This document shows, piece by piece, positions 20,806-44,337 of a DNA stretch of 64,000 bases. Below the pieces are notes generated by a model. The model was not told where the DNA came from, searched no databases, and saw only the letters and a list, made by a program, of their open reading frames with translations. The DNA is taken from NCBI GenBank assembly GCA_028706295.1, contig JAQWBQ010000009.1:8110-72109 (forward strand). Direction: 5' to 3'. The translations under genes were made by a program, and so were the position numbers. This DNA comes from Bacteroidales bacterium (lineage in GTDB: Bacteria; Bacteroidota; Bacteroidia; Bacteroidales; FEN-979). The stretch's first letter is position 1, and each line of letters starts with the position of its first letter.

Positions 20806-22158
20806 TCAGGCATTCTGATCCCAATCAAGATTATCGAGGATTGCCAATAGATCACTCGGGCGGTAAGGTTTTGCAAGGTATTCGTCCATTCCTGCAGCGA
20901 GGCATCTTTCGCGGTCGGTCATCATGACATGGGCGGTCACTGCCACAATTTTTATTTTCCTAACCCCACGTTCCAGATTCCGGATTATGCGGGTAGCTTC
21001 AATCCCGTCCATGATGGGCATCGCGATATCCATCAGAATCAGATCGTATGGGCGTTCTTTGTATAAATCGACGGCAACTTTCCCGTTCTCAGCGAGTTCA
21101 ACATGATGGCCAGCCCGTTTCAGACTGGTCATCGCGAACTTTTGATTAAGCAGGTTATCCTCAACCAATAGGATTCGGAGTGGTCCGAGTTTTTTCCGGG
21201 GAGTCGGGATCCCGTTACCGATTTTCCGGATCACCGCTTCATCTCCGACCTCAAATCCGAGGGTGAACCAGAATGTGGAACCTTGTCCCTGTGTACTTCT
21301 TACCCCGATTTTGCCCTTCATAAGAGTAGTCAGATTCTTTGAAATGGATAGCCCCAGTCCGGTACCTTCGTACCGTTTCATTAATGGATTTTCGAGTTGG
21401 GCGAATTCATTGAACAGGTTTTCCTGTTCTTCCGGCGGAATCCCAATCCCGGTATCTGTGATCTCAAATTTGAGGATGACTTTATTCCCGACATTTGTCG
21501 GTGCATTCAGAAATTCATCCGGGAGGAACATCTGCAATGCTGGATCAGGATGAGAATTCATTTCGATCGTTTCGACGGAAACCTCGACATGGCCACGGTT
21601 TGTAAACTTTATGGCATTATTGGTCAGGTTGATCAGTATTTGCTTTAGTCGCACAGGATCTCCGAGGAGGCATTTCGGGACCGAGGATTGGATTTTAGAG
21701 AAGAGATCGATTTTTTTCCCTTTAGCTTTGATAGATAACAACTTGATGACCTGTTGAATTTCTTCATGGGGATAAAACGGTTTATAATCCAGTTTTAACT
21801 GTCCGGCTTCAATTTTTGAAAGGTCAAGGATATCGTTGATAATGGTCAGAAGATTGACACTCGAAATATTGATAATTTCCAGGAACTCCCTTTGTTCGTC
21901 TGTCAGAACGGTCTGGCTCAGAACATTGTACATGCCGATTATGCTATTCATAGGGGTCCTGATCTCATGACTCATGTTTGCAAGAAACATCGACTTCGAA
22001 CGATTGGCATCTTCGGCATCCTGGCGTGCTTTGATCAGCTCCTGGCTTATTTTCTGATGGTCTTCCAGTTCTTCCCGGTCCTTTGCTGATTTTTCAATGA
22101 TCACTTCAAGTTCGGCGATTCGTTTTTCGAGCTCTTTTATTCTGCTTTCAGCGTCCAT
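20806..22158 (-). CDS. Cytoplasmic hybrid histidine kinase (coiled coil-HisKA-HATPase-REC)
   Basis: [58 protein letters not shown]. No TM helix. Confidence 0.93.
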
Positions 22159-22159
22159 T

Positions 22160-23572
22160 CTATAGTTTATTCAATTGGTTCTTCATGATTGAATACAGCT
22201 CCTGTTGATTGATGGGTTTCGAAATATAATCATCAAAGCCCGCTTCAAGCAGTTTCTCCTTATCACCTGTCATGGCATAGGCAGTTTGGGCGACAAAGGG
22301 AACTGTCTTGTACGCTTTGATTTTTTTTCTTACTTCATGCATCAGTTTGATTCCATCCCAGGGTGGGGGAAGGTTGATGTCGAACAACATGATGTCGAAA
22401 ACCTTTCCGGCTTTATATTCCTCTTCAATGACTTTCAGCGCCTCATCTCCATCCATAGTTGTGATTACATTGCCCAATGACTTGGTCATTTCAAAAAGGA
22501 CAATTTTGTTCATAAGGTCATCTTCCACAATAAAAATTTCAAGCCCTTGTAAAGTCTTAAACTTTTCTTTCTTTGTGGGTTCTTTTCGGGGTTGAATCTC
22601 GTCTGTAGTTTTTTCAGGTGGGAAGAAGATAGTCACGGTGGTGCCCATCCCTTTGGCAGATTCAATTTCGATATGCCCGCGCATCATTTCGACCAGGCTT
22701 TTAGCAAGCGGTAATCCCAATCCTGCACCGCTGTTCTCCTTTGTATATCCCAGGCTATCCTGCCTGAAGGGGTCGAAAATTCCCGGCAGATAGGTGGGAT
22801 CTATTCCAATCCCGGTATCCTTGATCCGGATACAGATTTCACCCTTGTCGGTCTGAAAATCGGTCGAAACATTGATAAATCCGTTGGGGGTGTACTTCAC
22901 AGCATTTTCAAGAACGATACTCAGAACTTTATTCAGCCCCTTCTCATCAATGAAAGCAGCCGGTACCTCATTGATCTTGAGATTCAACTTCAGCTTTTGC
23001 TCGTTGGCTTTGAAAATAAACATTTGTGTTGTGTCGGCAACCACATTGTTGAGCTGACATGACTTCAACTTTATTTGCATGTCATTTGCCTCTAACTTGC
23101 TAATATCTAATATGTTATCAAGCAAGTGAGAAAGCTTGTCCCCGCTTTCGGAGATAGCCCTGGCATAATCAAACAACTCTTTATTTTCGAGAAGGGATAT
23201 TTCAGCTTCGAGCAGGCTTGCAAACCCGATAATATTGTTCAGGGGAGTCCGGATCTCATGGCTAAAGTTCGATAAGAAGGCATTCTTCATGAAGTTGGCC
23301 TCTTCAGAACGTTTTAGTGCTCTTTTCAGGGTAAAGTCAGACTTTTCCGGATCGCCTTCTTCTTTTTTCAGTTCTGTTATCTTGTCTTTGATAATCTGAT
23401 CGACTGATTCTTTGGTCTCGGCCAAATCGGCGCTCAGTTTTTTCAAGGCTTGATCTTTTTTCAGTGATTCAGCCCTTAGGCTTTTCAATTTTCCCGAAAG
23501 GAGGATCACAGTCATGATGAGCGCCAATAAAACCAGGCAGGCTATGTAGAACAGCACACTATACAGATTCAT
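22160..23572 (-). CDS. Membrane-anchored hybrid histidine kinase (TM-coiled coil-HisKA-HATPase-REC)
   Basis: One N-terminal TM; [32 protein letters not shown]; [23 protein letters not shown]. Confidence 0.92.
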
Positions 23573-23581
23573 GATCAGATA

Positions 23582-24388
23582 TTATTTATAGGCAACATAA
23601 AGGTCTTCTTCAGGATTGATGGCATATTGCGTGAGGTTTGACTTCCACTTTTCCCTGGTCGGATTGTAGGTTTTAACCACAAATCCCCCGTTTTCCAGCC
23701 GGTTTTTATAGTCCTGACCATAGATTCTGACATGATCAAACTGACCGAACACCTGTTCCCTTGATTCCGGATCGGTGATTGACGGATCTTCGTAAGTGGT
23801 TTTCAGGACTTTTGAGATCGGGACCTGGAGAATCGCCCATCCGCCGGGTTTCAGGACCCGGTAAAGTTCCCTGATTGCAAGGTTATCATTGGGGATGTGT
23901 TCGAGGACATGATTGCAGATAATCACATCAAATGATTCATCTTCATATGGAATGGCTGTAATGTCGAGAAGATGGGTTTGTCGGGCATAGTAATATCCTT
24001 CGAGGTATTTGACTCCGGGAACATATAAAAGATTCGGTAATTCGCTCAACATGGCTCTCAGGCACCCTTCGGGAGCAACATGAAAAAGTTTCAGCGGGGA
24101 TGAAAAAATGGTGGTTTTTTCCTGTAGAAACAAATAAACCAGTCGATCCCGGTCCAGCGAATAGCAGCGGGGACACACATCGTTATTTCGAAAACCGGCT
24201 CCGATAATCTGTTTTTCATACAGAACCGGAAGGTCAAATCCGCCGGGAAGAAATTTGCGGAATGATTTTTTACAATACGGGCAATAATAAGAATCACCAG
24301 AATATAGTAAACCGTTGATTTTTTGGTAGCCTCCTCTGAGTTTTCTGCCAAGCCAGAAAGGGATGATTTTCTTTATTGCACTTTTCAT
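23582..24388 (-). CDS. Class I SAM-dependent methyltransferase with N-terminal Cys motifs
   Basis: CPYC...CPRC, LFHVAPE, LDITAIPYEDESFDVIICNHVLEHI, RVLKPGGWAILQVP. Confidence 0.85.
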   Translation of the reverse strand: MKSAIKKIIPFWLGRKLRGGYQKINGLLYSGDSYYCPYCKKSFRKFLPGGFDLPVLYEKQIIGAGFRNNDVCPRCYSLDRDRLVYLFLQEKTTIFSSPLKLFHVAPEGCLRAMLSELPNLLYVPGVKYLEGYYYARQTHLLDITAIPYEDESFDVIICNHVLEHIPNDNLAIRELYRVLKPGGWAILQVPISKVLKTTYEDPSITDPESREQVFGQFDHVRIYGQDYKNRLENGGFVVKTYNPTREKWKSNLTQYAINPEEDLYVAYK

Positions 24389-24395
24389 AATCGGT

Positions 24396-26087
24396 TTATT
24401 TGTGATTTATTAAAATGATTTTTCTAACGATCGATTGCTCCAGGGTTTTCAACAGGAGCGAATATACTCCCGCTTGAAACTGTTCTGTTTCCAGTTGTAT
24501 CTTTACGGGACCCGGTCCGGAACCGGGATATTGTTTATTGAAAACGATCCTGCCATTAGCGTCCAGAAGGGTCAATTTCAGATTTGATAAGCGTTCCAGC
24601 GTTACAGAGATATTGATTTTATCTATTGCCGGATTTGGAGATATGGAAACCGTCAGGATGGGTTTATAATGGTCAGGCAGCGCGAGCAGCGCAGAATCCT
24701 GACATTCGAATGCGCCGATATCATAAAGTTTGGCAAACGGCCGGATCCGGTTATGGATGTCGTAAGAAATTTCGAAGCCGGCGATGGTGGCGGCGGTATT
24801 GACAGCCTGGGAGGTCCGGGTCAGGTCAAAATTGCCCTGGGCCGGATCGACAAATCCCACGGTACTGATATCAAGTGATTTAATGTTCTGGACCATACTG
24901 ACCGGGGTTGAGGAAGATCCGATGTAAATGTACGACCGTTCACCCTCAGTTCCGTATGACCCCGGATTGATTAAAATATTATTTGAGATATGATTGTTCG
25001 AGCTTAGATTGTCTTCAAACCTTACACCGTAACTTTTGGGATCGATCACGGTATTGTAAGCAAGGAGGTAGCTGTTTGATGCTGAAGTGAATGTTGAACC
25101 GACAAAAAAGCCGTATTTTAAATAGGGTGCAACGTTTTGTTGGGGTTTATAGGTTCTTCCGGGATTTATGATCAGGTTATTGAAAATCCTTTGGTCCCCA
25201 AGTGAGATGATATCGATTCCATCGCCTTTCCCGTCGCGGATGTCGTTATTGTAACAGGAAGCCTGAGTTCCTCCGCCTAACAGGATCCCTGACATCTGGT
25301 ACATAACTTCAAGTTGGCTGTCATGGAGTATGACATTATCGTGGACGGCGCAGGCAGAGTCGGCGGAACTTACCTGTATCGCATCCCACCCGGTTCCGGA
25401 AACAAAATTTCTGTAAACTTCGACACCCTTTAACAAATGAGGCAGTACAGTTGTATCCTTTTCGTTGCAGGTTATGGTCTGACCCGCATATTTTGAACTG
25501 CCGATATACATTCCTTCCATCCCGGTATCGAAGATAAAGCAATTGTGGATTTTCAAATTTCTGAGGACGAATTTTTCGCGGGTGGATTTGAACTGGCAAT
25601 CGGGTTCCGTTTTTGCAAAAATTCCAACCAGGCCTGTTTTTCCTATTTCAAGGTACTCTAATTCGACATCGGTCGATAGTCCGTCGACCGATAATCCTGC
25701 ACCCACAGTATTGTTAATCTTTATTCCATACACCGAAGCCGGATCCCCGTTCCCTGAGAGTTTTACGTAAGAACAGGAATCGAATTTAATTCCATAATTG
25801 ACACAATTTAAAATAGAGACCACACCACCGCTGTTCAAAATAACAATGGGATTATTTCGTGAGCCATGAAGGAAAGAGAGCAGTAACATGGTCCGGTTTC
25901 CTTTCAACAGGCAGATGGTATCGCCAGGCAAAACTCCTGAGGCATTGGAGCGTCCATCAATCATTGTTACCGTGGAGTCAAAGCTGATTTTACATCCGTT
26001 TGCCTGTTTCCATCCGGTTAAACTTTGCATTCCGGTGATCAGCGACAGAAAAACTATCAGCTTATTTCTGAGGGATTTTTTTAACAT
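24396..26087 (-). CDS. T9SS cargo with right-handed parallel beta-helix (pectin-lyase-like) and type A CTD
   Basis: Asn-ladder repeats (IHNC, VYRN, VHDN, CYNN, IFNNLIIN), RPFAKLYDIGAFE anchor-like motif, CTD ISPNPA...GVYSLLL..RKII. Confidence 0.8.
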   Translation of the reverse strand: MLKKSLRNKLIVFLSLITGMQSLTGWKQANGCKISFDSTVTMIDGRSNASGVLPGDTICLLKGNRTMLLLSFLHGSRNNPIVILNSGGVVSILNCVNYGIKFDSCSYVKLSGNGDPASVYGIKINNTVGAGLSVDGLSTDVELEYLEIGKTGLVGIFAKTEPDCQFKSTREKFVLRNLKIHNCFIFDTGMEGMYIGSSKYAGQTITCNEKDTTVLPHLLKGVEVYRNFVSGTGWDAIQVSSADSACAVHDNVILHDSQLEVMYQMSGILLGGGTQASCYNNDIRDGKGDGIDIISLGDQRIFNNLIINPGRTYKPQQNVAPYLKYGFFVGSTFTSASNSYLLAYNTVIDPKSYGVRFEDNLSSNNHISNNILINPGSYGTEGERSYIYIGSSSTPVSMVQNIKSLDISTVGFVDPAQGNFDLTRTSQAVNTAATIAGFEISYDIHNRIRPFAKLYDIGAFECQDSALLALPDHYKPILTVSISPNPAIDKINISVTLERLSNLKLTLLDANGRIVFNKQYPGSGPGPVKIQLETEQFQAGVYSLLLKTLEQSIVRKIILINHK

Positions 26088-26111
26088 GCTTCTCTCTTTA
26101 TGGCGACCGGT

Positions 26112-27293
26112 TTAGCCCCGTTTGGCCCGTTCCCAGTTCACGGATTGCTGTTTTTTGATATATCGCATAAAGCCAAGATATACCGCAAGGTTCATGATCA
26201 TGAAATAGTATGGGACGAAAAGGATTTTTATTTTAATTTTTCGTTCTTCCAGAATCCAACCGGTGAAAGCCATCAGGTAAATCAGTAATTGCCCCCAGAA
26301 CAGCCAGGTATATACCGAACATCCATTAAAAAATCCATCCGAAAGTGCGATGATAAAATTGCAGATCAGGATGATGGCCAGCCCAATGGGGGCAAGGGTC
26401 CAACGCAGTACCCGGTGTGAAATATATTGAAATGAGAGCATTCCGTATATGAACGGGTTGAGCAGCGCTTTCAATCTGATGACCGATTGGATACCGCCTG
26501 CAGAGATCCTTATCTTGCGTTTCAGCTCTTCTTTGACACTGGCTGAAGGATTTTCAATGGCATAGGCATCGGGGTCATACTGGATGGTATAACCCTGCAT
26601 AGCGATCCGTAATGAAATAATAAAATCATCGAGCAGTGTATCACGTTCCACGGGTTTAAACAGTTCGGTACGGAGGGCGAACAATTCGCCCGCTGCACCT
26701 ACAACCGAGTACAGACGGGCATCCCACTGTTTGAGTTTTGATTCATATTTCCAGTAGATTCCCTCAGTTGCGGCGGCAGTATCTTTGTTGAATATCCGTT
26801 TTTCACCCGATACACAGCCAACCTTCGGATTGCTGAAAAGACTGACGATCCTTCGGATTGATTCTTTGCCCAGCATGGTATTTCCATCGGAAAAAATAAC
26901 TATCGGAGTTTTCACAAACTGCATCCCGCGGTTCATAGCAGCTATTTTACCTGCCCGTTCCGGTTGATGGTACACTTCGACACCGGGGTAGTTTCGGAGC
27001 AGATCGGGTGTGCCATCATCCGATCCATCGGTGATCCACACATGTTTTACTTTCTCCTTCGGATAATCCAGTGAAAAAGAGTTTTGTAGTTTCATATCTA
27101 CAAAGTCTTTTTCATTGTAGGCGGTCACGAACAGTGTCACTTCGGGTTCATACCCGGCATCCTCCCGGTTTTTGTTCTTACCGGTTACCATTTCCTTGAT
27201 CCTGACCAAACAAAAGAGCAGTAACCCATAACCCAGGTAAGAATAGAAAATGATGAAAAGAAAGACCCAAAATAGGATTTTAATTATCAGCAT
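26112..27293 (-). CDS. GT2 glycosyltransferase (PgaC/IcaA-like, membrane-bound)
   Basis: VTLFVTAYNE, TDGSDD, GKIAAMN, FSDGN, LLDDF, ELKRKIRI, flanking TM helices. Confidence 0.9.
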   Translation of the reverse strand: MLIIKILFWVFLFIIFYSYLGYGLLLFCLVRIKEMVTGKNKNREDAGYEPEVTLFVTAYNEKDFVDMKLQNSFSLDYPKEKVKHVWITDGSDDGTPDLLRNYPGVEVYHQPERAGKIAAMNRGMQFVKTPIVIFSDGNTMLGKESIRRIVSLFSNPKVGCVSGEKRIFNKDTAAATEGIYWKYESKLKQWDARLYSVVGAAGELFALRTELFKPVERDTLLDDFIISLRIAMQGYTIQYDPDAYAIENPSASVKEELKRKIRISAGGIQSVIRLKALLNPFIYGMLSFQYISHRVLRWTLAPIGLAIILICNFIIALSDGFFNGCSVYTWLFWGQLLIYLMAFTGWILEERKIKIKILFVPYYFMIMNLAVYLGFMRYIKKQQSVNWERAKRG

Positions 27294-27299
27294 AGCTTT

Positions 27300-28487
27300 T
27301 CAGTTATTGTTACTTATTTCCTCTATTGCTTTATATATCTCATTTACATTGGCTTCCCAGGTATGACTTCGGGCAAATTCCTCACGACGGGTCGCTTGTT
27401 CGGGTGAATCTTCTATAAGCGCTTTTTCAACCAGTTCAAGATACTCCTCCCGGGATGTTGCCAGATACGTGTATTCCTCAAAAACAACCATCGCTTCGGT
27501 CCGGGTTGCAACCACCGGTTTCCCCATTGCGAGGTACTCATCTATTTTACGTGGATAATTCCCAATGGTTACCTCATTCAGGATTTGAGGATTGATCGCT
27601 ACATCAAAACAGGAGAGGTAGGCCGGGAGTTCATCGGGATTTTTGCTTCCCAGAAAATGAACATTTGGCATACCGTGAAGGGAGCTTGCTTTAAATCCTT
27701 CATCTTCAGGACCGATCAGAACGACAGACCAACCGGGTCTCTGTTCGGCAAGCCACGCGATGATGCCGATATCAAGCCTAAGGGTGTAAAGTGCGCCGAT
27801 ATACCCGATTATCGGTTTTCGGATCTCTTTAATGTCATCGGGCGCTTCTTTTATCAGTTTCATGTCAAAGGCAGTGACATCACAACCTTGTCCCACATAA
27901 TAGGAACGGGGGTTGTATTTACGGAGGTAATTGGCCAGGTAAACTGAGTTGGCAACGGCAAGATCTGCTTTTTGAATCAGTTTTGCTTCAATCCTGATGC
28001 CTTGTCGTTTCCACCATTCCACGGCAATCAGGTTATCGCGTGAATAATAGATGTACAGTTTCGGTTTCAGAAGTTCCTTCAGATAGAAACTGCGGAACAT
28101 GTCACTGTCGTTAAAAATGACGAAATCACGGAATCCGAGCTTTCGGATTGCTTTTCCGATCTGCCGGGCAAACCGACGGTTGTTGATGCGGTTCAGAAAA
28201 TCGAACAAGCAGTCATTACTGATCTGGCTAATGGATTCGAGAATGGTCCTTGGAAACAGATTCCACAGGTTATCCTGTACCTGTATAAGATCATCCAGCT
28301 CTCCCTTCAGGATCTTCCTGCGTTTCATGATCCGTGGATCCTTTCGCTCACGGTACAGGGTCAACCGGTCGACCGGGTAATTAACGTAAAGAACTCTGTG
28401 CTTTTTTGCGAATTCCAGGGCAAGATTGATACAGTTGCTTCCAATGGCGCTGTCGAATGCTTGCAATCCGGTTACTACGATATCCAT
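27300..28487 (-). CDS. GT4-type glycosyltransferase (TuaH-like)
   Basis: IGYIGAL, NYPRKIDEYLAMGKPVVAT, HTWE. Confidence 0.85.
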   Translation of the reverse strand: MDIVVTGLQAFDSAIGSNCINLALEFAKKHRVLYVNYPVDRLTLYRERKDPRIMKRRKILKGELDDLIQVQDNLWNLFPRTILESISQISNDCLFDFLNRINNRRFARQIGKAIRKLGFRDFVIFNDSDMFRSFYLKELLKPKLYIYYSRDNLIAVEWWKRQGIRIEAKLIQKADLAVANSVYLANYLRKYNPRSYYVGQGCDVTAFDMKLIKEAPDDIKEIRKPIIGYIGALYTLRLDIGIIAWLAEQRPGWSVVLIGPEDEGFKASSLHGMPNVHFLGSKNPDELPAYLSCFDVAINPQILNEVTIGNYPRKIDEYLAMGKPVVATRTEAMVVFEEYTYLATSREEYLELVEKALIEDSPEQATRREEFARSHTWEANVNEIYKAIEEISNNN

Positions 28488-28511
28488 GGGCAGGTCGGTT
28501 AAAGGCTTCTG

Positions 28512-29645: not shown

Positions 29646-29711
29646 AATGATATTATTAATATTTCGAATATTCAAGTACAGATGCGTACAACCTTCATTA
29701 CACCATTCGGA

Positions 29712-30902: not shown

Positions 30903-30915
30903 ATCGTTCTCCTCT

Positions 30916-32109: not shown

Positions 32110-32144
32110 GGTATATCTGTTATGAAAAATTGAACGGCATATGG

Positions 32145-32152
32145 CAAATTTA
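32145..32152 (-). promoter_or_regulatory. Internal -7 element inside the polysaccharide locus
   Basis: CAAATTTA on + equals TAAATTTG on -, in the 74-nt gap before ATG 32109. Confidence 0.55.
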
Positions 32153-32183
32153 ATCAAAAGTGATTTGAAAACAAACCGGATAA

Positions 32184-33107: not shown

Positions 33108-33129
33108 CTTGGATCGGTTTTTCCCGGTT

Positions 33130-34068: not shown

Positions 34069-34201
34069 TCAGCCGTTCCTCCCTTTTTTTGTCCTCGGCA
34101 GCTTTTTTTGCCGCTTTCTGATCCTGGTACCAGGCGGCAATGACACCGATGGGCGTAAACAGTACCAGACCGATCAACATATGTACAACTACTCCTTCCA
34201 T
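34061..34201 (-). CDS. Small 46-aa single-pass membrane protein (not in ORF track)
   Basis: MEGVVVHMLIGLVLFTPIGVIAAWYQDQKAAKKAAEDKKREERLNG*. Starts 6 nt after the upstream stop and overlaps the next ATG by 8 nt. Confidence 0.75.
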   Translation of the reverse strand: MEGVVVHMLIGLVLFTPIGVIAAWYQDQKAAKKAAEDKKREERLNG

Positions 34202-34207
34202 ACTGGA

Positions 34208-35680
34208 TTATGATATTGTATTTGATTTTTGTTCAAGAATCATCTGATCGAGGCCGGGGGCAAGGAATACATAGGCCATACTGGCATAAATCAACAAACC
34301 GGTCGGGAACTGGCCAAGAACCGCGTTGCCGTAACTTGCAACCATGATACCGAAGATTCCGCACAACAGCGCACTTATTTTGACCAGGAGTTCGGGATCT
34401 CTGATTTTGACCATACAGATATAACATCCCTTTCCGATGATATAGCCTAGAATAAACAGGTGAAGGTACAGTCCGATAATTCCGCATTCGGCCCAAATCA
34501 ACACGAACCAGCTATCGGTCGCGACACTTGATAGGAACGTTCCAGGGGTGTAAGCCTGGGCACGGTCGCCTGCATGGCCGATGCCTCCTCCGAAAGGCCT
34601 GGTTTTCAGATATTCCTGAAAGAGCCGTTGGTTTTTTATACGCACAAGGTATGACGCGTCCTGTTCCGGAACGAAGGCGGTTCGCATCCGGTAAATCTGG
34701 TAGTTGCTGTTACCCAGGGTTGTGAACCGCATGAAAGAATAGAATATGATCATAACAACGGTTCCAATCAGGATGACCTTAAAATTCTTACGCAGGATTA
34801 TGTACAGCGCCAGTCCTCCCATGGGAACAAAAATAGCTCCCCGGGTTCCAGAGGCCGACATCCCGTAGAAGCCTGTTATCATCACAGCAATCCAGAACAA
34901 TCTCTTTTTAAAATTCTTTTCACTCATCATCATGATGGCGCCGATGAGTCCGATCTGTCCCTGAGCCGCCCCGAATTGCCCGGCGTCGGTGTAAAACGAA
35001 AAAGCCCGCAGGTTGCCCCAGATTATATGTGTAATACCTCCAACTTCATCCAGCCACCGCTGTTCCCATGGATCCACTCCGATATTTAACTGGATCCATC
35101 CTTTAATTCCGGCGAGTATCGAAAATACGCCCCAGATGGTCAAAAATTTATCGAGGTGCTTCGGAGAATTGTATAGTAAATAGACCAGCGGGATGGTCAG
35201 GATCATGTAGAATGCGATTCCCCGGAATGCCGAAAACCAGGCTGTTTTACTGATGGCCTCAGGGTTAAAAAATTCCAGGCAGATATATAGGAACCAGATC
35301 AGCGACAGGATTATCAGATCGGATTTCAGGGAAGTGATGTTAAGTTTTTTATCAAAATAGTGAAAAAATATGGCCACATAGATAACGATCTCAGTAATAT
35401 CCATCAAATATCCCATCTTGATCGGGACATAGCGCTGAACGCCCATTAAAAGGAAATTGATGATAAATGCAAAGGTCAGTCCGATTTCGGGTTTTGCGAT
35501 AACCCGGTTAAGGGCATAAACGATAACGGGAAGGGCCATCAGGGCAGATGCGATGGTAAATCCGCCGCGGGCAATGACGAAACCGATACCAATGGCCATA
35601 ACAAGGATCGATCCGGCTAAAAACGGATTTTTCAACCGGTCGGCTCCTGTTCTTTCATGAAATGGATTTAACGACTCCAC
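34208..35680 (-). CDS. O-antigen ligase/Wzy polymerase-like membrane protein
   Basis: About 12 TM segments, SGTRGA, periplasmic loop PFGGGIG...DSWFVLIWAECGIIG. Confidence 0.8.
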   Translation of the reverse strand: MESLNPFHERTGADRLKNPFLAGSILVMAIGIGFVIARGGFTIASALMALPVIVYALNRVIAKPEIGLTFAFIINFLLMGVQRYVPIKMGYLMDITEIVIYVAIFFHYFDKKLNITSLKSDLIILSLIWFLYICLEFFNPEAISKTAWFSAFRGIAFYMILTIPLVYLLYNSPKHLDKFLTIWGVFSILAGIKGWIQLNIGVDPWEQRWLDEVGGITHIIWGNLRAFSFYTDAGQFGAAQGQIGLIGAIMMMSEKNFKKRLFWIAVMITGFYGMSASGTRGAIFVPMGGLALYIILRKNFKVILIGTVVMIIFYSFMRFTTLGNSNYQIYRMRTAFVPEQDASYLVRIKNQRLFQEYLKTRPFGGGIGHAGDRAQAYTPGTFLSSVATDSWFVLIWAECGIIGLYLHLFILGYIIGKGCYICMVKIRDPELLVKISALLCGIFGIMVASYGNAVLGQFPTGLLIYASMAYVFLAPGLDQMILEQKSNTIS

Positions 35681-35686
35681 ACCTTG

Positions 35687-37072
35687 CTATGGTTGTTGGT
35701 TAATCCGGAATACCCGAAAAATGTAATTTCTGTAGAAAAAGTATCCTTTCCTGAAAATGTCAATGAAGGAGATTTCGATTTCCTGCCGCAGGAAACGATA
35801 TCCTACGACGATGCCAATAATCGAGAAGATGATGGATGCAATGGCAACAAAAAACAGGATGGTGGTAACTGGCATTTCGGGAAACAGATAATGCATGCCA
35901 AAAACGGCAAAAATATCACCCAGGATATTGGCGGTGGTCATATAGATCACTTTCTGGAAATTTCGCTGGGGTTTATTCAGGCTGTCGAGCGCCACCCCGG
36001 TGAAACGGTCTAACGGCAACAGTACGCAGTAGATAATCATGGCAATCATGACATAGGAGAGGGGAGTAAGGAGCTCGCGATACTGGTTACCGCCGATAAA
36101 CAGGATGAATAACTTGTTAAATATCAAACTGACAAGTGCGATGGCAATGAACAGGTAAGCAACAATTCCGGTGTAGGAATAGTAGATGTCTTTAAAACGC
36201 TGCATGTTGTTATTGAGGCTCTCTTTCGACAACTTTGGAAAGGCGGTGGTCGCAAAGCTGATCAGTGGAATTTCGATTAGTTCCACATATTTGAGCGGTA
36301 TGGCATACATCGCGACACCGGCAGGGCCGCAATAGGCGCTGAAGGAGATGATGAAACTGTCGGCACCTTTGAGAAGACTGCTGCCGACCTTGGTCCCCAT
36401 CGAGAACTGGCCGTATCGCAATACTTCCTTCATTTTAACTTTGGTAAAGTAGCGAAGGTACTCCAGGCCCGTCCACTTACGTATAATGCAAAAGAGGGAG
36501 GTTGCCAGGTTGGTCAGAAGATAAATCATAACAACCACGGTAATAGTGATATCGGTGAGCAGGTATGCGATAAAAATGATGACCAGGAAGGAACAAAGGT
36601 TGAAAAATCTGATCCAGAATATCTTACCAAATTGAAGTTCAGCCTGGAAGATGGTCCAGGCATAGTTCCATGGCAGGTTAATCAGGGCAAGAACGGGGTA
36701 CCAGTAACAGAAAACATCATAACCACTGCTTTCCAGAGTTCCCGGAATGATCAGCGTCAGGGCCCAAAGGATTGCTGTAATCGGTATAAGGATCAGAAAA
36801 CCGATGATCCAGCTTGATCCCAGGTAGTATTTGCGGTCTTCGGGCGTGGGTGAGGAGAGAAACCGTACCAGGGCTTCTTTACTAAGTCCGAACCTGAGCA
36901 TGTCGATGAGAGAAGCCGGCGCCGTAAAAAGTACCCATTTCCCGAAATCCGGGATGGAAAGCATTCTCATCAGGATCATGAAGGAAAGCAAACCCATCAC
37001 AGCCGTTGACAGATTGGCTGCTAATGAGAGAAAATTCAGGTCATTAACCAGTTTTAGGAGTCTCGTTTTCAA
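35687..37072 (-). CDS. Wzx-like oligosaccharide flippase
   Basis: Multi-TM PST pattern: RMLSIPDFGKW, IDMLRFGL, GVAMYAIPLKY, TTAFPKLS. Confidence 0.8.
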   Translation of the reverse strand: MKTRLLKLVNDLNFLSLAANLSTAVMGLLSFMILMRMLSIPDFGKWVLFTAPASLIDMLRFGLSKEALVRFLSSPTPEDRKYYLGSSWIIGFLILIPITAILWALTLIIPGTLESSGYDVFCYWYPVLALINLPWNYAWTIFQAELQFGKIFWIRFFNLCSFLVIIFIAYLLTDITITVVVMIYLLTNLATSLFCIIRKWTGLEYLRYFTKVKMKEVLRYGQFSMGTKVGSSLLKGADSFIISFSAYCGPAGVAMYAIPLKYVELIEIPLISFATTAFPKLSKESLNNNMQRFKDIYYSYTGIVAYLFIAIALVSLIFNKLFILFIGGNQYRELLTPLSYVMIAMIIYCVLLPLDRFTGVALDSLNKPQRNFQKVIYMTTANILGDIFAVFGMHYLFPEMPVTTILFFVAIASIIFSIIGIVVGYRFLRQEIEISFIDIFRKGYFFYRNYIFRVFRINQQP

Positions 37073-37074
37073 AA

Positions 37075-39741
37075 CTAAATATTATTCTTTTCACGAAACC
37101 TGAATGTTAAAATCTGTTTGATCGCTCTTCTTAGTTTGGATCTTTGTCTGGGCAATTCACCAAAAACCACATCGAGGTAAATAAGTTCAACACCATTTAA
37201 AACGATTTGCGGGGTCTGCTTGAAAAGTGGTAAAAATGCGTTGAGCGCGCTCTCATCTGCATCTGTCCATGAACGGTTTGCCCGGGTCACGATCAGGCCG
37301 AAATCAAATGCCCGGATCAACTCGAGGGGATAAGAATTGTTGATCAGGGACGGAATTTCAACGAGTACGTAGTCGTAGCCATTCAGATCGAGATGTTCAT
37401 AGCCTACCAGCAGGGAGCTGAGTTCATTTACTTCAAAGAAGTTATCCCGGATTACAAACTGGATTTCATCATCGGTTGGTGGAATCAGCTCGCCGGAAGA
37501 TATATAAGATTGGTTTCCTGATTGTTCTTTTACATAGTTCAGATAAATCACATTTTCGCCGAATGATCTTAGTTTGCGGGTAAGTTCGCGCCCGATGCTG
37601 GTTTTACCTTCTGCATCGCGGGTGCTGAACAATAAGATCATGATGGGTCTCTTGTTGGGCAGGATATTGGAACGGGTCAGGGCAAGTTTGATATTCTGGG
37701 CAAGGATCTCAACGAGTCGGGGCAGAATAAATCCGATATCGACCGAATAGATCTCTTTTCCGATCTGTGGGTAGATACCCGCGACTTTCAGTTTAATAAA
37801 CCGTTCGGCACGTTCGGGGGTTTTGATGGTGGTATCGAAAAATTCAAGGGCCAGCAGGATGGCGGCCATCAGAACAAAGCCTGCAACGGCAGCAATAAGT
37901 ACAAGAAGGAGTGCTTTCGACCGGATCGGATTCAATGGGTAGTAAGGAGCGTCGACCACCTTGAGGTTGGTCGAAAGCTCATCGTCCTGTTGTCGCAATT
38001 TGGCTAAGTTCAAATCGTGAAGCAATTGCAGAAATTCGCTTTCAGTCACGGAAATCAACCGTTCGATGCGTTTCATTTCAGCGCCAAGCGGAGCAAAAAC
38101 CTCATACACCCGCTGAAAATGTTTCTTTCGCTCAGCCAATACCCGCAGGGCGGCCTTGCTCTCTTCATAGGCCACCACATTGGCCAGCCAGGAGTTCAGA
38201 AGGTCCTTTAACGGCAGACCTTCGACGCTGTTGGTGACCAGGTAAAGCCGGTCGATGTTGTTTTTAATTGCGGCTTTAATGTTTTCAACACGCGATTTCA
38301 GCATGGAAAGCTGCTGGATGGTGGCCGAATCATTACCAAGATCGATCTCAATGTTGGCAATTTGCATGGTCGTTTCCGCAAGCTCATTCCTGAGACGGAG
38401 GATGGCGCTCGTGTTGAGTGAAAGTTTCGCGTGTGATTCCAGCTTTTTTTCAATAATTTTAATTGCCGCATCAGAGGAGGCAAAAGCAATTTGTTTATTC
38501 TGAAAAGTCACGTCAAGCTCTTCCTTGGTGATGGCGATCTCCTTGGTCTGCTCGTAGTAGTTGATGATGTTGTTTCGTTCATTAAAGACCAGCAGGTCAT
38601 TTTCTGCTTTCTGAAGCCTGCGGGCTGCATCTTCAAGTTGCCGTCTGAAATACTGAATGACGGCATCCGTCTGGTTTTGCTTTAAAAGCTTATAGTTCCA
38701 GATAAAAACCTTAGTCAGGAAGACCAGGGTCTGCTGGCATATTCCCGGATCAGGGCTCGAGTAAGTCAGCCGGACCAGGTCGCTGTTCTGTACCCGGTAG
38801 ATTCCGACGGTCGAAAGTACTTTTATGCTGTAAAACCGGTCTTCTTCCGAGTTCCACAACTTATAGATAAAGTTATAGTCATTCTGATGGCCGTAGGCCA
38901 GCAAGCGTCTTACAATCCGGTCAAAGGCAGAAGAATCCTGAACGCCTCTCGTTATGGATATCAGGGTATCGGAGGTTGAGAAGTAATCGCGGATTCGGGA
39001 GTTTGAATCGCCGTAAGAGGCCGGGGAGGGTTCGGGTTCATACCCCTGCTCCGGTACCGGTGAAGCTTCGGGTACATCAGCAACAACGGAAACCTGCAGC
39101 TTTTGACCGACCGAAAGGGTATTCCCGGCAAGGTCGTTGATTGATTTTAGGTCGTCGACACTCAGTCCGTTCGAGTGGGCAATTGAATACATGGTTTCAC
39201 CCCGTTTGACGACATGAAATTTGCCGGTGGAAGCGCTCGGGGATTTTACATTGCCGTATTGGGCCTGTCCGCTATTATAATCATTTTCGAAAAGTGCGGT
39301 ATCAAGTTGTGAAGTCCGCCTGGATGGGGCTTTGTAATAACGTTTATCGCTCCTTTTGGCTTTTCTCACGATGTCGAGCACATCGGGCGGGACTTTGGAA
39401 AGGATGTCGTCGTAGTTTTCTTTGGAGATGTAACGGGGGTCGTAATGGTCGAGAAGGAGATGTTGTGCAAGGAGGCTTACGGAAACTTCTTCAAGGGTTT
39501 GACGTGATTTGATAAGGTTGATCAGGTTGTCGAAAGAGGCCATGGTGGCCATCATATCGTAGGAAGTCTGCTGCTGAACAGAATAACCTGAAGTCACGCC
39601 GGTGTATATCGTTGTTTCGGAGTAATAAGACCATTGGCTTTTACGGGTCAGAAAGAAGACCACCGCAGCTATGATCAGCGGCACAAGGATCAGCAGAATG
39701 ATGTGACGCTGTAACAGTTTTATAAAATAAATGATCTTCAT
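37075..39741 (-). CDS. Wzc/GumC-like polysaccharide co-polymerase with inserted LysM and degenerate kinase-like C-domain
   Basis: N-terminal TM, coiled coils, second TM, EFFDTTIKTPERAE, STRDAEGKT. LysM at residues 175-217 (nt 39091-39219). Confidence 0.85.
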   Translation of the reverse strand: MKIIYFIKLLQRHIILLILVPLIIAAVVFFLTRKSQWSYYSETTIYTGVTSGYSVQQQTSYDMMATMASFDNLINLIKSRQTLEEVSVSLLAQHLLLDHYDPRYISKENYDDILSKVPPDVLDIVRKAKRSDKRYYKAPSRRTSQLDTALFENDYNSGQAQYGNVKSPSASTGKFHVVKRGETMYSIAHSNGLSVDDLKSINDLAGNTLSVGQKLQVSVVADVPEASPVPEQGYEPEPSPASYGDSNSRIRDYFSTSDTLISITRGVQDSSAFDRIVRRLLAYGHQNDYNFIYKLWNSEEDRFYSIKVLSTVGIYRVQNSDLVRLTYSSPDPGICQQTLVFLTKVFIWNYKLLKQNQTDAVIQYFRRQLEDAARRLQKAENDLLVFNERNNIINYYEQTKEIAITKEELDVTFQNKQIAFASSDAAIKIIEKKLESHAKLSLNTSAILRLRNELAETTMQIANIEIDLGNDSATIQQLSMLKSRVENIKAAIKNNIDRLYLVTNSVEGLPLKDLLNSWLANVVAYEESKAALRVLAERKKHFQRVYEVFAPLGAEMKRIERLISVTESEFLQLLHDLNLAKLRQQDDELSTNLKVVDAPYYPLNPIRSKALLLVLIAAVAGFVLMAAILLALEFFDTTIKTPERAERFIKLKVAGIYPQIGKEIYSVDIGFILPRLVEILAQNIKLALTRSNILPNKRPIMILLFSTRDAEGKTSIGRELTRKLRSFGENVIYLNYVKEQSGNQSYISSGELIPPTDDEIQFVIRDNFFEVNELSSLLVGYEHLDLNGYDYVLVEIPSLINNSYPLELIRAFDFGLIVTRANRSWTDADESALNAFLPLFKQTPQIVLNGVELIYLDVVFGELPRQRSKLRRAIKQILTFRFREKNNI

Positions 39742-40529
39742 TAATCGATCTTATTGATTACGTTAAACTTGATACCGGCGATTTCCTGTAATATCATATA
39801 TGCATTGTAAAATTCGTTGCGCGCCTGTTCAAAATCGGTAACTGCTTTTCGGTACATTTCATTGATGTAAGCAAGTTCGTACAGCGTGGTCTGACCGTTG
39901 AGAAATTCTTTATCACCCATCTCTTTCTGGAGTGCATTCGCAATGACGTTATCGTTGGCAATTTTCAAAATACGTTGGTTTACGATCAGTTGATTGTACT
40001 GGATAATGATCAGTTTACGCAATTCCACGACCTCATTATCCTTTACTGCCATGGCCTTTTCAACTTCTTTGGTTGCAGTTTTGATCCGGTTTTTTCGGTC
40101 CCATAGGTCGTCCATAGGCATACGTAAGCTGATGCTTGCAAGCGCTCTGTTGTTGTTCTGGTAAGATAAGATGGTATTGTTGTCACCATAATTTGTCTTA
40201 TTGTTGGTCAAAGCATCCCAGACATCATTTTGAAGAAGACCGTCGATATAAAAGTTTTGCATCCATTCGCGACGGGCTGTCTTTACTTTGTATTTCCAGA
40301 TGGAGATATCGGCATCCTGTGAGCGAAGCAGGGGGGAGTGTATGATGGCTGAATCGATCAGATCTTCGAGCGGGGGAATGCGTTGGGTGATATCATCGAC
40401 AAACGGATTAAAGGTGACCGTTGAATCCTGGGGATGGCTGCCGACCTTCATAAATCCCTGTCCCCAAAAGGTAAGCGGGATGACAACCAGGAAAAGAGTC
40501 ATGAAGGCGGTTTCAATTTGTTTTCTCAT
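39741..40529 (-). CDS. TolC/outer-membrane efflux protein family, half-length (262 aa)
   Basis: Signal FWG|Q, LEDLIDSAIIHSPLL, a short beta segment (ISLRMP), then helical KEFLNGQTTLYEL..AYMILQEIAG. Only one OEP repeat. Confidence 0.72.
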   Translation of the reverse strand: MRKQIETAFMTLFLVVIPLTFWGQGFMKVGSHPQDSTVTFNPFVDDITQRIPPLEDLIDSAIIHSPLLRSQDADISIWKYKVKTARREWMQNFYIDGLLQNDVWDALTNNKTNYGDNNTILSYQNNNRALASISLRMPMDDLWDRKNRIKTATKEVEKAMAVKDNEVVELRKLIIIQYNQLIVNQRILKIANDNVIANALQKEMGDKEFLNGQTTLYELAYINEMYRKAVTDFEQARNEFYNAYMILQEIAGIKFNVINKID

Positions 40530-40554
40530 AAGCTGAGATCAAGAGGTTCAAAAA

Positions 40555-41787
40555 TTATACATTTTCTTTTTGAATAAAAACTGCAAACGTCCTAAAAATC
40601 AGGACGATATCACCCCAGAATGAATTGTGTTCTGCATAGTAGTTATCGAGCGCGAATCGTTCCTCCTCCGACATTACTCCTTTTCTGCCTCTTTTCTCGA
40701 CCTGCCACAATCCCGTCAGTCCGGCGGGAGCCCTGAACCGGCGGCTCCATTTTTTCTTGGTAAGGGCTTCGGCTTCATTCAGAGGGAGGGGGCGGTTTCC
40801 CACTATCGACATGTCGCCCTTCATGATGTTGAAAAGCTGGGGCAGCTCATCGATGCTGGTCATCCGGATAAATTTACCCACTTTCGTTATCCTGGGGTCA
40901 TCTTTGATCTTCAGAAAGGCTTTTTTAACGTTCCGTCGTTTGTTGGCCAGTCTTTCGCAAATCTCCTCCCCGTCATAATAAACAACGGGTGAACAGGTCT
41001 GACCCTGGGGTAATTTAGCGCATTCGGAACAACTGTCTTCAACGATATCACTGATGTATTGATTCAGGTGGGCGACGTCTTTGAGCCGTTTGTCAGCATC
41101 GGGGTACATCGACCTGAACTTGTAAAAATCAAAAATGCGGTAATTGGCTCCGACCCTTTTGGAAATATAGTAGACTTTTCCCCTAGACTCCAGAAGTATG
41201 GCGATAACAGTAAGCAACATTATCGGAGAAAGAATAAGCAGTGCAGTCAGGGCGATGGTGATATCAAAAATTCGTTTTGGAAGAGGTGTTTTATAGGGTG
41301 TAATGTCTTCATCCTGAAGCGAAATCGGTTTTGAAACATGTTCCGACTTTAATCTCTTGAGAAAATTGATCCTGCTGTGGATGTTGCTCACATTGATCTC
41401 CTTGTCGTAGTAATCGTCTGCCCCCATATTATAGGCATCCAGTTTCAGACATTTATCACGGAAGAAAGAGATGAGGATATAGGGAGTTTTGGAATATATT
41501 TTTTGTACTTTGATTTTATGGAACAGCGTAAGTCCGTTGATACCGGGAAGATAGTATTCACTTATGATTGCGTCGATCTGCCGGTTTTCGGTGAAGGCTT
41601 TTTCTTCCCTTGCTTCGGTGGTCACATCAAAAAGATGGAAGGTATTTTCGGTCAGCCAGTAAAGCGCGGCAAGGCCATTGGTGAAATGAGTGATATGAAA
41701 AAGTTCACTATTCTGAAACAGGCCAAGATTTACCTGGTCGTTTCCGATATATAATACTTCAAGCCTGTTGGCGGAACCTTCAGCCAT
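40555..41787 (-). CDS. Receiver-domain-fused priming phosphoglycosyl transferase (Bac_transf)
   Basis: REC-like residues 8-145; KRIFDI, FYKFRSM, DDPRITKVG, SIDELPQ, GDMSIVGNRP, PAGLTGLWQV. Confidence 0.9.
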   Translation of the reverse strand: MAEGSANRLEVLYIGNDQVNLGLFQNSELFHITHFTNGLAALYWLTENTFHLFDVTTEAREEKAFTENRQIDAIISEYYLPGINGLTLFHKIKVQKIYSKTPYILISFFRDKCLKLDAYNMGADDYYDKEINVSNIHSRINFLKRLKSEHVSKPISLQDEDITPYKTPLPKRIFDITIALTALLILSPIMLLTVIAILLESRGKVYYISKRVGANYRIFDFYKFRSMYPDADKRLKDVAHLNQYISDIVEDSCSECAKLPQGQTCSPVVYYDGEEICERLANKRRNVKKAFLKIKDDPRITKVGKFIRMTSIDELPQLFNIMKGDMSIVGNRPLPLNEAEALTKKKWSRRFRAPAGLTGLWQVEKRGRKGVMSEEERFALDNYYAEHNSFWGDIVLIFRTFAVFIQKENV

Positions 41788-41792
41788 TTGGT

Positions 41793-42191
41793 TTAGTTTC
41801 CCCTGCGTTGTGTGTATAAATCTCTGAATTCCAACCTTCTTTTGATCCGGGCAATGAGTTCCTTGGGATTAAAGGGTTTCAGCACATAGTCATCAGCGCC
41901 CATTTCAAAACATTTTATTTTATCTGCGCTCTCCTCTTTTCCCGAAAGCATAATCAGGGGAATTTCATCGAAGAAACCGCTTTCCCGGATTCTTTTGATA
42001 AATTCAAATCCATTCAGGACCGGCATCTCGACATCGCAAATGATAAGGTCAGGCAGGTTGCCTGACTGAAGATAAAACAATGCATCCATCCCGTTGCTAA
42101 TGGAAGTTACATCGAAGTCCTTGTTAAACGTGTTTTCGATGATAAACCGGATACTCTTTTCATCATCAATAGCGAGTATCTTTTTTTTCAT
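41793..42191 (-). CDS. Single-domain response regulator
   Basis: ILAIDD, DLIICDVEMP, LSGK, DYVLKPFN, no output domain. Start is ATG 42191. Confidence 0.9.
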   Translation of the reverse strand: MKKKILAIDDEKSIRFIIENTFNKDFDVTSISNGMDALFYLQSGNLPDLIICDVEMPVLNGFEFIKRIRESGFFDEIPLIMLSGKEESADKIKCFEMGADDYVLKPFNPKELIARIKRRLEFRDLYTQRRGN

Positions 42192-44326: not shown

Positions 44327-44337
44327 GGGATCAGTGG

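Follow-up and report, generated by a model that had tools for sequence, protein, structure and literature searches.

A conserved Wzx/Wzy-type polysaccharide locus of Bacteroidota with a candidate half-size TolC-fold export protein and a receiver-fused priming enzyme

Here we describe an 18-gene polysaccharide locus of a Bacteroidales bacterium, located on the minus strand of a 64,000-nt stretch of contig JAQWBQ010000009.1 (hereafter the window), in which the gene of a half-size, single-repeat protein of the TolC fold (half-TolC) directly precedes the gene of a Wzc-like polysaccharide co-polymerase (PCP). With moderate confidence, we regard this locus as a conserved and chromosomally fixed Wzx/Wzy-dependent pathway for a methylated heteropolysaccharide, which would operate without an outer-membrane polysaccharide export protein (OPX) of the Wza type. 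Taken jointly, the two central functional assignments, i.e. that export would proceed via the half-TolC/PCP pair and that a single-domain response regulator (RR) would gate the priming phosphoglycosyl transferase (PGT), appear reasonably likely to us.

Composition of the locus

The locus comprises 19 features, i.e. 18 genes and one promoter box, between positions 20806 and 42218, within an unbroken run of open frames on the minus strand between 20806 and 42257. Pfam and NCBIfam profile searches of the encoded products, together with the coordinates of the open reading frames (ORFs), confirmed the gene order, the domain content and the gene coordinates proposed in an initial annotation, which had been made from the sequence alone. 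The gaps between neighboring genes, which this annotation had given as mostly below 30 nt, range from −8 (an 8-nt overlap) to +36 nt. No match to Poly_export/SLBB, tyrosine phosphatase, NusG-like UpxY, UpxZ or nucleotide-sugar enzymes was found among the 18 products with either profile collection, as had been anticipated. The components of a two-component system were indeed located at both ends, with the RR and a fusion of a receiver domain to the PGT (REC-PGT) at the head and two hybrid histidine kinases (HK2 and HK1) at the tail. The export, priming and signaling genes are as follows.

41793..42191, minus strand: single-domain response regulator (RR), 132 aa; Pfam REC 5e-28, intact DD...D...S...K receiver residues
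40555..41787, minus strand: REC-PGT, a pseudo-receiver fused to a small monotopic phosphoglycosyl transferase, 410 aa; Bac_transf 6.7e-58 and Response_reg 2.6e-11
39741..40529, minus strand: half-TolC with signal peptide, proposed outer-membrane duct subunit, 262 aa; single OEP repeat 4.8e-12
37075..39741, minus strand: PCP-2a-like co-polymerase (PCP), 888 aa; LysM 3.3e-12, weak Wzz and GNVR, TIGR03007 chain-length determinant 5e-14
22160..23572, minus strand: hybrid histidine kinase HK2, 470 aa; HisKA-HATPase-REC, one N-terminal transmembrane (TM) helix, coiled coil
20806..22158, minus strand: hybrid histidine kinase HK1, 450 aa; HisKA-HATPase-REC, soluble, N-terminal coiled coil

A family of single-repeat TolC-fold proteins

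The OEP match of half-TolC covers positions 1-182 of the 187 positions of the Pfam profile as a single repeat, and the chain is thus distinct from outer-membrane factors (OMFs) of the TolC type, which are defined by two tandem repeats in about 430-500 aa. An AlphaFold2 (AF2) model, built from 34 homologues with a mean pLDDT of 78, contains three helices of 38, 66 and 36 residues in this order, with a beta region between the first two. Its 39 best Foldseek matches in the PDB are all OMF channels (OprM, TolC, CusC, VceC, CmeC and others), with about 208 aligned columns, which corresponds to half of a protomer of about 430 aa. When the family profile was aligned by hhalign with the 13 full-length OMFs of the same genome (probability 97.9%), it matched equally well their C-terminal repeat (E = 6.2e-13 over 195 columns) and their N-terminal repeat (E = 2.5e-12 over 197 columns).

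The size of the protein is a property of the whole family. All of the 112 close homologues have a length of 250-280 aa, and a search of 1.84 billion representatives retrieved at least 171 clusters (50% identity, E ≤ 1e-30), the best 150 matches all being 121-295 aa long. Among 401 sampled Bacteroidota genomes, 15 (about 4%, from at least 10 families) encode a half-size frame of 228-279 aa, and the matches to full-length TolC (450-490 aa, E of about 1e-16) lie many orders of magnitude apart from it. Of the about 18 OMF genes in the genome under study, half-TolC alone has a single-repeat OEP frame; all the others contain two repeats. From the uniform length of the homologues and the singularity of the frame we conclude that half-TolC represents a real family and not a truncation. 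In a phylogenetic tree the family forms a single clade (support 98/95), which groups with the C-terminal OMF repeats; the deep forks are weak (92/84), and the topology hints at a secondary derivation of half-TolC from a C-terminal repeat.

The beta region of half-TolC aligns with one hairpin of the native OMFs with a single one-residue gap, from which each chain is predicted to supply two strands, one long helix and one split helix. Residues 207-213 of half-TolC form a turn with the invariant sequence KEFLNGQ. An arrangement with four strands per chain, which would lead to a trimer, was considered and rejected, because the hhalign alignment is one-to-one with a single hairpin and because indels are frequent in the middle segment, which is also polar and variable. 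TolC itself has pseudo-sixfold symmetry, and by analogy six half-TolC chains would reproduce its 12-strand, 12-helix duct. We propose that half-TolC, in whose sequence a signal peptide is visible, would reside in the outer membrane and form a closed barrel. Such a six-chain, single-repeat duct would be a natural counterpart of the form of TolC that is presumed to have preceded its duplication. No membrane fusion protein (MFP) and no ABC, RND or MFS protein was found among the 18 products or those of the two genes upstream, uvrB and a gene of the endonuclease/exonuclease/phosphatase (EEP) family.

Coupling of half-TolC to a Wzc-fold co-polymerase

The initial annotation had proposed a Wzx/Wzy system with a gene for a TolC-type channel. 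In agreement with this, a TolC-fold protein appears to be translationally coupled to the PCP at the place normally occupied by Wza. In 34 of 35 loci, including those of Chitinophagaceae and Cytophagaceae, the half-TolC stop codon overlaps the PCP start codon by 1-4 nt or is separated from it by a gap of at most 17 nt, and all cassettes examined have the half-TolC/PCP pair as their invariant core.

In the AF2 model of the PCP (pLDDT 73), two TM helices are seen along with an alpha/beta base, about 260 residues of long helices and, on the cytoplasmic side, a further alpha/beta domain; the LysM domain is attached by disordered linkers. The TM helices are located at about residues 14-32 and at 610-634, enclosing a periplasmic domain of about 570 aa with helices across 332-590, which is the two-TM layout of PCP-2a proteins. 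The periplasmic part (residues 33-609) contains an invariant region with G508, P510 and W518. In Foldseek searches, full-length Wzc was the first match (2.5e-15), and the isolated kinase domains of Wzc, BceF, CapB and Etk were matched with TMt values of 0.55-0.61. The PCP, which had initially been annotated as "LysM-Wzc", therefore has the Wzc fold and the LysM domain implied by this name. Its kinase motifs, however, are degenerate: in the alignment of orthologues, Walker A reads EGK[TS] with a conserved lysine, Walker A' has lost both of its Asp residues and Walker B reads VEIPS, and the C-terminal tail is basic (RQRSKLRRAIKQILTFRFREKNNI) and devoid of a tyrosine cluster in all orthologues. 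These features would explain the absence of a phosphatase gene, and by sequence they would place the PCP with the phosphorylation-independent PCP-2 proteins recently defined in Myxococcus; PCPs with a pseudokinase of the bacterial tyrosine (BY) kinase type are an established class (PMC12004946). Only a Prolixibacteraceae-like clade has the LysM insert.

OPX genes elsewhere in the genome

A genome-wide search for Poly_export/SLBB genes had been suggested in the initial annotation as a check on the export route, and its outcome was mixed. The genome of the window (G000) encodes two Poly_export (PF02563) proteins outside the locus. The first (268 aa, contig C120) is directly followed by a canonical Wzc of 789 aa in a separate locus and thus has its own partner, whereas the second (811 aa) lies on a contig of 6 kb (C100) without a visible PCP. 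With the locus on C120, the genome also keeps a canonical export route. This region (C120:40000-56000) is a conventional locus that encodes, besides Wza (268 aa) and Wzc (789 aa), a GDP-mannose dehydratase and an ABC-transporter ATPase, with a 522-aa kinase-like/REC protein ahead.

A similar separation was observed in further cassette genomes. In four of them (G001, G002, G009 and G010) the single OPX gene is directly adjacent to its own Wzc-type PCP gene of 790-835 aa, and in two (G003 and G004) a Wzz-type PCP is encoded 3-7 kb from the single OPX gene. In all seven genomes checked the cassette PCP is located beside half-TolC, and every OPX except the one on C100 has a separate PCP next to it or no more than 7 kb away. 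At least one OPX gene is present in 23 of the 24 cassette genomes tested. The exception, the complete genome G212, was considered as an OPX-free carrier and rejected, since it has no Poly_export match genome-wide but harbors a 217-aa ORF with a faint SLBB match (E = 0.0078) upstream of a canonical Wzc.

These OPX genes allow for an alternative in which the polymer exits via a conventional OPX encoded elsewhere, with half-TolC as an accessory protein, i.e. a periplasmic spacer, a tether between peptidoglycan and outer membrane or a chaperone of the PCP. Its support comes from the two Poly_export genes of the genome, of which the one on C100 has no PCP in view because the contig is only 6 kb long, and from the near-universal presence of OPX genes in cassette genomes. 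We nevertheless regard it as rather unlikely, in view of the regular association of the OPX genes with separate PCPs and of the translational coupling of the cassette PCP to half-TolC. Moreover, half-TolC retains its signal peptide and the whole repeat including the beta hairpin, which is pore-forming in OMFs, and the half-size homologues are always single-copy and adjoin a PCP. An export route through the half-TolC/PCP pair accordingly remains the reading that we favor.

Two-component proteins and the priming enzyme

The stand-alone RR is intact. Its receiver motifs (IDDE...ICDVEMP...MLSG...KPF) are invariant in 30 orthologues, with 77-100% identity in the close clade, which makes it the most conserved protein of the locus, and it has no output domain. 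The receiver domain on the PGT, in contrast, reads AIISEYYLPG. All close loci have Glu at the phospho-acceptor position, the distant loci L037-L039 have Ala, Asp or Arg there, and the Lys of this domain is not conserved; by these residues the domain is a pseudo-receiver. The same change from Asp to Glu occurs in the pseudo-response regulators of the plant clock. Given a pseudo-receiver on the PGT, we conclude that the stand-alone RR must be the phosphorylatable switch.

The catalytic part of the PGT has a DE dyad (SIDELPQ, invariant) and one hydrophobic re-entrant segment (residues 172-203), as is typical of small monotopic PGTs (monoPGTs) like PglC. Within the catalytic domain, a Cys-x2-Cys...Cys...Cys (Cys4) insert (40957-41031, residues about 253-277) is present in every orthologue, including those of Ferruginibacter and Cytophagaceae, and probably forms a metal site. 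To our knowledge, this insert is absent from enzymes of the PglC/WbaP type. Receiver-fused monoPGTs are reportedly the subject of a paper by O'Toole et al. (2021).

The genes of RR and PGT are separated by 2-20 nt in most loci of at least three classes, and an RR gene is still found next to the PGT gene or close to it in G212 and G145, where the PGT is without a receiver domain. HK1 and HK2 have neither a sensor domain nor an Hpt domain. A 154-aa open frame with an Hpt domain is found on contig C138 of the window genome, and in G297 a PAS-HisKA-HATPase-REC-Hpt kinase is encoded directly upstream of the RR. In Myxococcus xanthus, the phosphorylated single-domain RR EpsW binds and directly activates the PGT EpsZ, which provides the one experimental precedent; its authors also point to receiver-fused small monoPGTs as an existing but unstudied group (PMC12802240).

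Alternatively, the two-component proteins might not gate the PGT at all. The RR would then act on the pseudokinase domain of the PCP, on Wzx/Wzy or on an unlinked partner, and the pseudo-receiver would be a structural or dimerization module. Consistent with this, the PGT lacks a receiver domain in some cassettes (G212, G145 and G247), one locus (L040) has no RR at its head, and the kinases are devoid of Hpt domains. We consider this alternative unlikely, however, because the RR is tightly linked to the PGT gene across classes, is more conserved than any other product of the locus and stays beside or near the PGT even where the latter has lost its receiver. Without an output domain the RR must act by protein contact, and for direct activation of a PGT by an RR the EpsW/EpsZ precedent exists. 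Gating of the PGT by the RR is therefore retained in the pathway proposed below.

Conservation and genomic context

The initial annotation had mentioned related loci in other Bacteroidota, and such loci are indeed widespread. A pattern scan with one genome per species identified 38 loci with a half-TolC relative, and the order RR, REC-PGT, half-TolC, PCP, Wzx, Wzy and glycosyltransferases (GTs) was found in all of these species-level loci for which enough sequence was available. From this conservation we conclude that the arrangement is not due to chance. The core is also present in metagenome-assembled genomes (MAGs) labeled Ferruginibacter, Cytophagaceae and other families and classes, with a half-TolC identity of 24-33%. 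Several GTs are 40-60% identical even in distant cassettes, which favors a conserved polymer rather than a variable capsule.

The distal block (the glycosyltransferase GT2a, the beta-helix protein sorted by the type IX secretion system (T9SS), the methyltransferase, HK2 and HK1) has the same order in four of six relatives and is partially kept in the other two, and a convergent T9SS gene beyond HK1 is also retained. Orthologues of HK1 are located 19-22 kb from half-TolC in all six relatives, and orthologues of HK2 are found in four of them. In the close relative G001 (C1:144001-160000, locus L043), HK2 is replaced by two short ORFs on the plus strand (288 and 107 aa) and the HK1 frame contains an in-frame TAA; the kinase end of this locus seems to be decaying or interrupted, with the biosynthetic genes intact.

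The upstream neighbor of the locus is uvrB (42290-44326). In the Prolixibacteraceae-like clade, uvrB and an EEP-family gene precede the cassette. The pair of uvrB and the EEP-family membrane protein (42290-45471) lies directly upstream in most of the 38 species, including the distant L036, and judged by the sequence comparison this synteny is unusually stable for a polysaccharide locus.

The fixed position of the locus also bears on another alternative, namely that its product is a cell-bound glycan, similar to O-antigen or to A-LPS and anchoring T9SS cargo, with the putative Wzy being a ligase of the WaaL type and the half-TolC/PCP pair having a role other than export. Three observations speak for it: Wzy_C, the O-antigen ligase family, is the sole Pfam match of the putative Wzy; genes of two T9SS-sorted proteins are conserved within the locus or adjoining it; and the locus belongs to the fixed core genome, beside uvrB, and is not a variable capsule island. 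Nonetheless, we judge this alternative to be improbable. The architecture of the PCP, with its kinase-fold domain, is that of the PCP-2a (Wzc) proteins typical of the export of capsules and exopolysaccharides (EPS), and not that of the Wzz proteins of O-antigen systems; ligated lipopolysaccharide would travel by Lpt and would not need an outer-membrane protein coupled to a PCP; and Wzy_C is common to Wzy polymerases and ligases. We thus prefer the reading of the locus as an export pathway.

The source organism was detected in metagenomes from biofilm, landfill, sludge and wastewater, and carriers of the cassette include abundant Bacteroidota of sludge, wastewater and freshwater as well as cultured, harmless Emticicia and Pseudarcicella (Emticicia fontis, Emticicia sp. 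C21 and Pseudarcicella hirudinis). One contig (L003, SACF01000050.1), whose proteins are 97-100% identical to those of the locus, is filed under a MAG labeled Alphaproteobacteria, which is almost certainly a binning error because every other relative belongs to the Bacteroidota.

Promoter and expression

A −7 element at the head of the locus had been part of the initial annotation, and it corresponds to the following feature.

42211..42218, minus strand: Bacteroidota −7 promoter box TATATTTG, 20 nt before the ATG of RR

The frequency of the motif was rejected as statistical support for a promoter, since TAnnTTTG occurs 41 times in the whole window with 40 occurrences expected from shuffles, i.e. 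at chance frequency. The box is instead supported by its conservation: in 28 of 29 orthologous loci AATATATTTGCTTAC is retained without change 25-29 nt ahead of the RR start, and the flanking spacer diverges. It is because of this phylogenetic footprint, and not because of the motif count, that we place a putative promoter at the head of the locus. About 22 nt upstream of the −7 box (window 42240-42252), nearly all orthologous loci have another conserved block, ATATCTATTT(T), which is a candidate for a −33-type element or an operator.

Two activated-sludge metatranscriptomes contain contigs that are identical to the locus, some of which bridge the half-TolC/PCP (39679-39829) and PCP/Wzx (37051-37350) junctions, and one locus-identical contig extends upstream of the predicted start site. 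We take these matches as weak evidence that the locus is expressed. The bridged junctions, the gaps of at most 36 nt and the conserved −7 box are in line with a single operon.

Proposed pathway

In the pathway that we propose, the two sensor-less hybrid kinases would phosphorylate the single-domain RR, probably via an Hpt protein encoded elsewhere. The phosphorylated RR would dock on the pseudo-receiver of the PGT in a contact of the REC-REC type and thereby switch on the transfer of sugar-1-phosphate to undecaprenyl phosphate, so that the control of priming would be post-translational and exerted at the first committed step, as for EpsW/EpsZ. The repeat unit would be completed by the seven GTs and the methyltransferase, flipped by Wzx and polymerized by Wzy. 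The PCP would organize the polymerization, probably as an ATP-binding or scaffold module and not through a phosphorylation cycle, and would be tied to the peptidoglycan by its LysM domain. Six half-TolC protomers, each with two beta strands and two helix equivalents, would assemble into the duct, which would meet the long helical periplasmic domain of the PCP and take the polymer over the outer membrane. At the surface, the T9SS-secreted beta-helix enzyme may trim or modify the polymer.

Several observations weigh against this pathway. In the half-TolC model, the pLDDT of the beta region is low, at about 60, and four short strands are assigned to this region by DSSP. Canonical PCP-2a proteins form octamers, as seen in structures of Wzc, and a hexameric duct would lead to a symmetry mismatch. 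The 811-aa OPX without a PCP in view could act in trans, and no truly OPX-free carrier was found among the 24 cassette genomes tested. As regards signaling, the locus does not encode a complete phosphoryl route to the RR, both kinases being without Hpt domains, and locus L040 consists of the export core without RR or PGT at its head. Finally, the locus-identical metatranscriptome contigs have a depth of only 2-5, at which carry-over of DNA is possible.

A further-reaching interpretation, which we put forward tentatively, is that the system amounts to a fourth kind of outer-membrane polysaccharide translocon. This translocon would be independent of OPX, with six single-repeat chains docked on a PCP of the Wzc fold and not on an adaptor of the HlyD/AcrA type, and the phosphorylated RR would switch a small monoPGT via a Glu-containing pseudo-receiver.

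Comparison with known systems

One of the closest known systems is the Wza-Wzc system (OPX/PCP-2a) of E. coli capsules and colanic acid (7nhr, 9r64; PMC12881504). It shares with the locus the logic of PGT, GTs, Wzx, Wzy and PCP, the coupled gene of an outer-membrane component immediately upstream of the PCP gene, and a PCP of the Wzc fold, in which a helical periplasmic domain is combined with a P-loop domain in the cytoplasm. However, the outer-membrane partner here has the TolC fold and is not a Poly_export/SLBB protein with an alpha-helical pore, and the PCP is without a tyrosine cluster, has degenerate Walker A' and B motifs and an inserted LysM domain, and is not accompanied by a Wzb phosphatase.

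With TolC and other OMFs (Pfam OEP PF02321; 1ek9, OprM, CusC), half-TolC has in common the repeat signature, the succession of ascending helix, beta hairpin, helix of about 66 residues and returning helix, and the signal peptide. It differs in having one repeat (262 aa) instead of two (about 430-500 aa), so that six chains instead of three would be needed, as well as in its neighborhood, which consists of a PCP with no MFP, ABC, RND or MFS gene nearby, and in its presumed cargo, a polysaccharide.

For the signaling part, the EPS system of M. xanthus is the most similar (EpsW/EpsZ, PMC12802240; the pseudokinase EcpK with the PCP EpsV, PMC12004946). In both cases the priming PGT is linked to a phosphorylatable single-domain RR, the gene of which accompanies those of a Wzx/Wzy pathway, and the BY-kinase-like module of the PCP is devoid of phosphorylatable tyrosines; moreover, several GTs of the locus give weak matches of the EpsU/EpsE/EpsD type. 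In contrast, the PGT described here is a small monoPGT with a fused pseudo-receiver, whereas EpsZ is a large dimeric monoPGT without the DUF beta hairpin. Local hybrid histidine kinases take the place of the Dif chemosensory system, and Myxococcus exports by an OPX and beta-barrel pair (EpsY/EpsX) and not by a TolC-fold protein.

In the literature searched, TolC has been implicated in polysaccharide exit only in synthase-dependent systems, where the housekeeping full-length protein is used (PMC13438883). A TolC-fold duct is the proposed exit both in the tripartite cellulose system of cyanobacteria and in the BgsA/BgsB/TolC system of Sinorhizobium for mixed-linkage beta-glucan (PMC13438883), which is the likeness to the locus. 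Unlike in these systems with their synthases, housekeeping TolC and HlyD-type adaptors, the genes found here are of the Wzx/Wzy type and include a dedicated half-size paralogue, with the PCP as the would-be adaptor. Composite translocons of OPX and beta-barrel proteins (class-3 OPX with porins of the GfcD/EpsX type; PMC9601211, PMC9603273, PMC12819527) are likewise Wzx/Wzy outer-membrane routes other than the alpha-helical pore of Wza. They require, however, an OPX and an 18-strand monomeric barrel, neither of which is encoded in the locus, and a literature search indicated that the alternative Wzx/Wzy translocons described so far all still contain an OPX protein. The locus also differs from capsule loci of the Bacteroides type (CPS), since it is devoid of UpxY/UpxZ and OPX genes and its gene content is not variable but conserved over 38 species, mostly next to uvrB.

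In line with the initial annotation, which knew of no mechanistic study, the literature search found no paper describing the cassette, and it returned no account of a half-size or single-repeat TolC, of TolC with a PCP, of TolC-family genes in EPS clusters or of a half-TolC cassette. Judged from the gene content, the combination of a half-TolC export gene with the RR/PGT pair in a Wzx/Wzy locus thus appears to be undescribed in the searchable literature.

If the proposed pathway holds true, post-translational gating of the EpsW/EpsZ type would extend to a second class of PGT and to a second phylum. In current Wzx/Wzy models, export over the outer membrane always involves an OPX, with or without a beta-barrel, and a dedicated TolC-fold exporter would represent a new class at the least varied step of these models. 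It would also imply that a TolC duct can be built from half-size chains and be served by a co-polymerase instead of a classical adaptor. The cassette would further provide a compact system for two-component control of the first committed step of glycan synthesis without transcription, a step that competes for undecaprenyl phosphate. In the sludge, wastewater and freshwater settings of the carriers, matrix polymers determine the properties of flocs and biofilms.

Other genes of the locus

The remaining genes encode the putative flippase and polymerase, a small membrane protein, seven GTs, which together span 26112-34068, and two proteins that may modify the polymer.

35687..37072, minus strand: Wzx-type flippase, 461 aa; Polysacc_synt 4.3e-12, multiple TM segments
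34208..35680, minus strand: Wzy-type polymerase or O-antigen-ligase-like membrane protein, 490 aa; Wzy_C 1.8e-08, about 10 TM segments
34061..34201, minus strand: single-TM protein with charged tail, 46 aa, 8-nt overlap with the following gene; also present at this place in about 25 orthologous loci
33130..34068, minus strand: soluble GT2 glycosyltransferase, 312 aa; Glycos_transf_2 8.8e-24
32184..33107, minus strand: soluble GT2 glycosyltransferase, 307 aa, the most conserved GT (72-90% identity); Glycos_transf_2 3.3e-25
30916..32157, minus strand: polytopic membrane GT2, EpsU/PgaC-like, 413 aa; Glyco_tranf_2_3 6.1e-21, EpsU 4.2e-19 (below cut-off)
29712..30902, minus strand: polytopic membrane GT2, EpsU-like, 396 aa; Pfam/NCBIfam profiles, TM segments
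28512..29675, minus strand: GT4 glycosyltransferase, 387 aa; Glycos_transf_1 6.8e-34 and Glyco_transf_4
27300..28487, minus strand: GT-B glycosyltransferase, TuaH-like, 395 aa; Glyco_trans_1_4 1.6e-11, TuaH 1.7e-24 (below cut-off)
26112..27293, minus strand: polytopic membrane GT2, PgaC/DPMS-like over its full length, 393 aa; PgaC_IcaA 1.1e-25 over 10-392, PDB 6yv7 4.5e-20
24396..26087, minus strand: T9SS-secreted right-handed beta-helix protein, 563 aa; Por_Secre_tail 7.4e-09, Beta_helix 1e-08, NosD
23582..24388, minus strand: S-adenosylmethionine (SAM) methyltransferase, 268 aa; Methyltransf_11 4.5e-15

Three of the GT2 enzymes are polytopic and show weak full-length similarity to PgaC, EpsU and a structure of the dolichol-phosphate-mannose-synthase (DPMS) type; they may serve in the assembly of the repeat unit or in the supply of lipid-linked sugars. 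A sequence search of the PDB with the T9SS-secreted beta-helix protein gave no match at E ≤ 1, and the most economical guess is that it is a candidate surface glycanase or polymer-modifying enzyme. The methyltransferase (23582-24388) carries at its N-terminus, before the SAM-binding fold, a CxxC...CxxC motif resembling a zinc ribbon (YYCPYCKK...VCPRCYS).

Convergent to HK1, with 8 nt between the two stop codons, a protein of 1029 aa is encoded on the plus strand (17708-20797), the only recognizable domain of which is a T9SS sorting tail. A gene for a protein of 1014-1165 aa occupies the corresponding place in six relatives, and the convergent T9SS protein may be a functional member of the locus.

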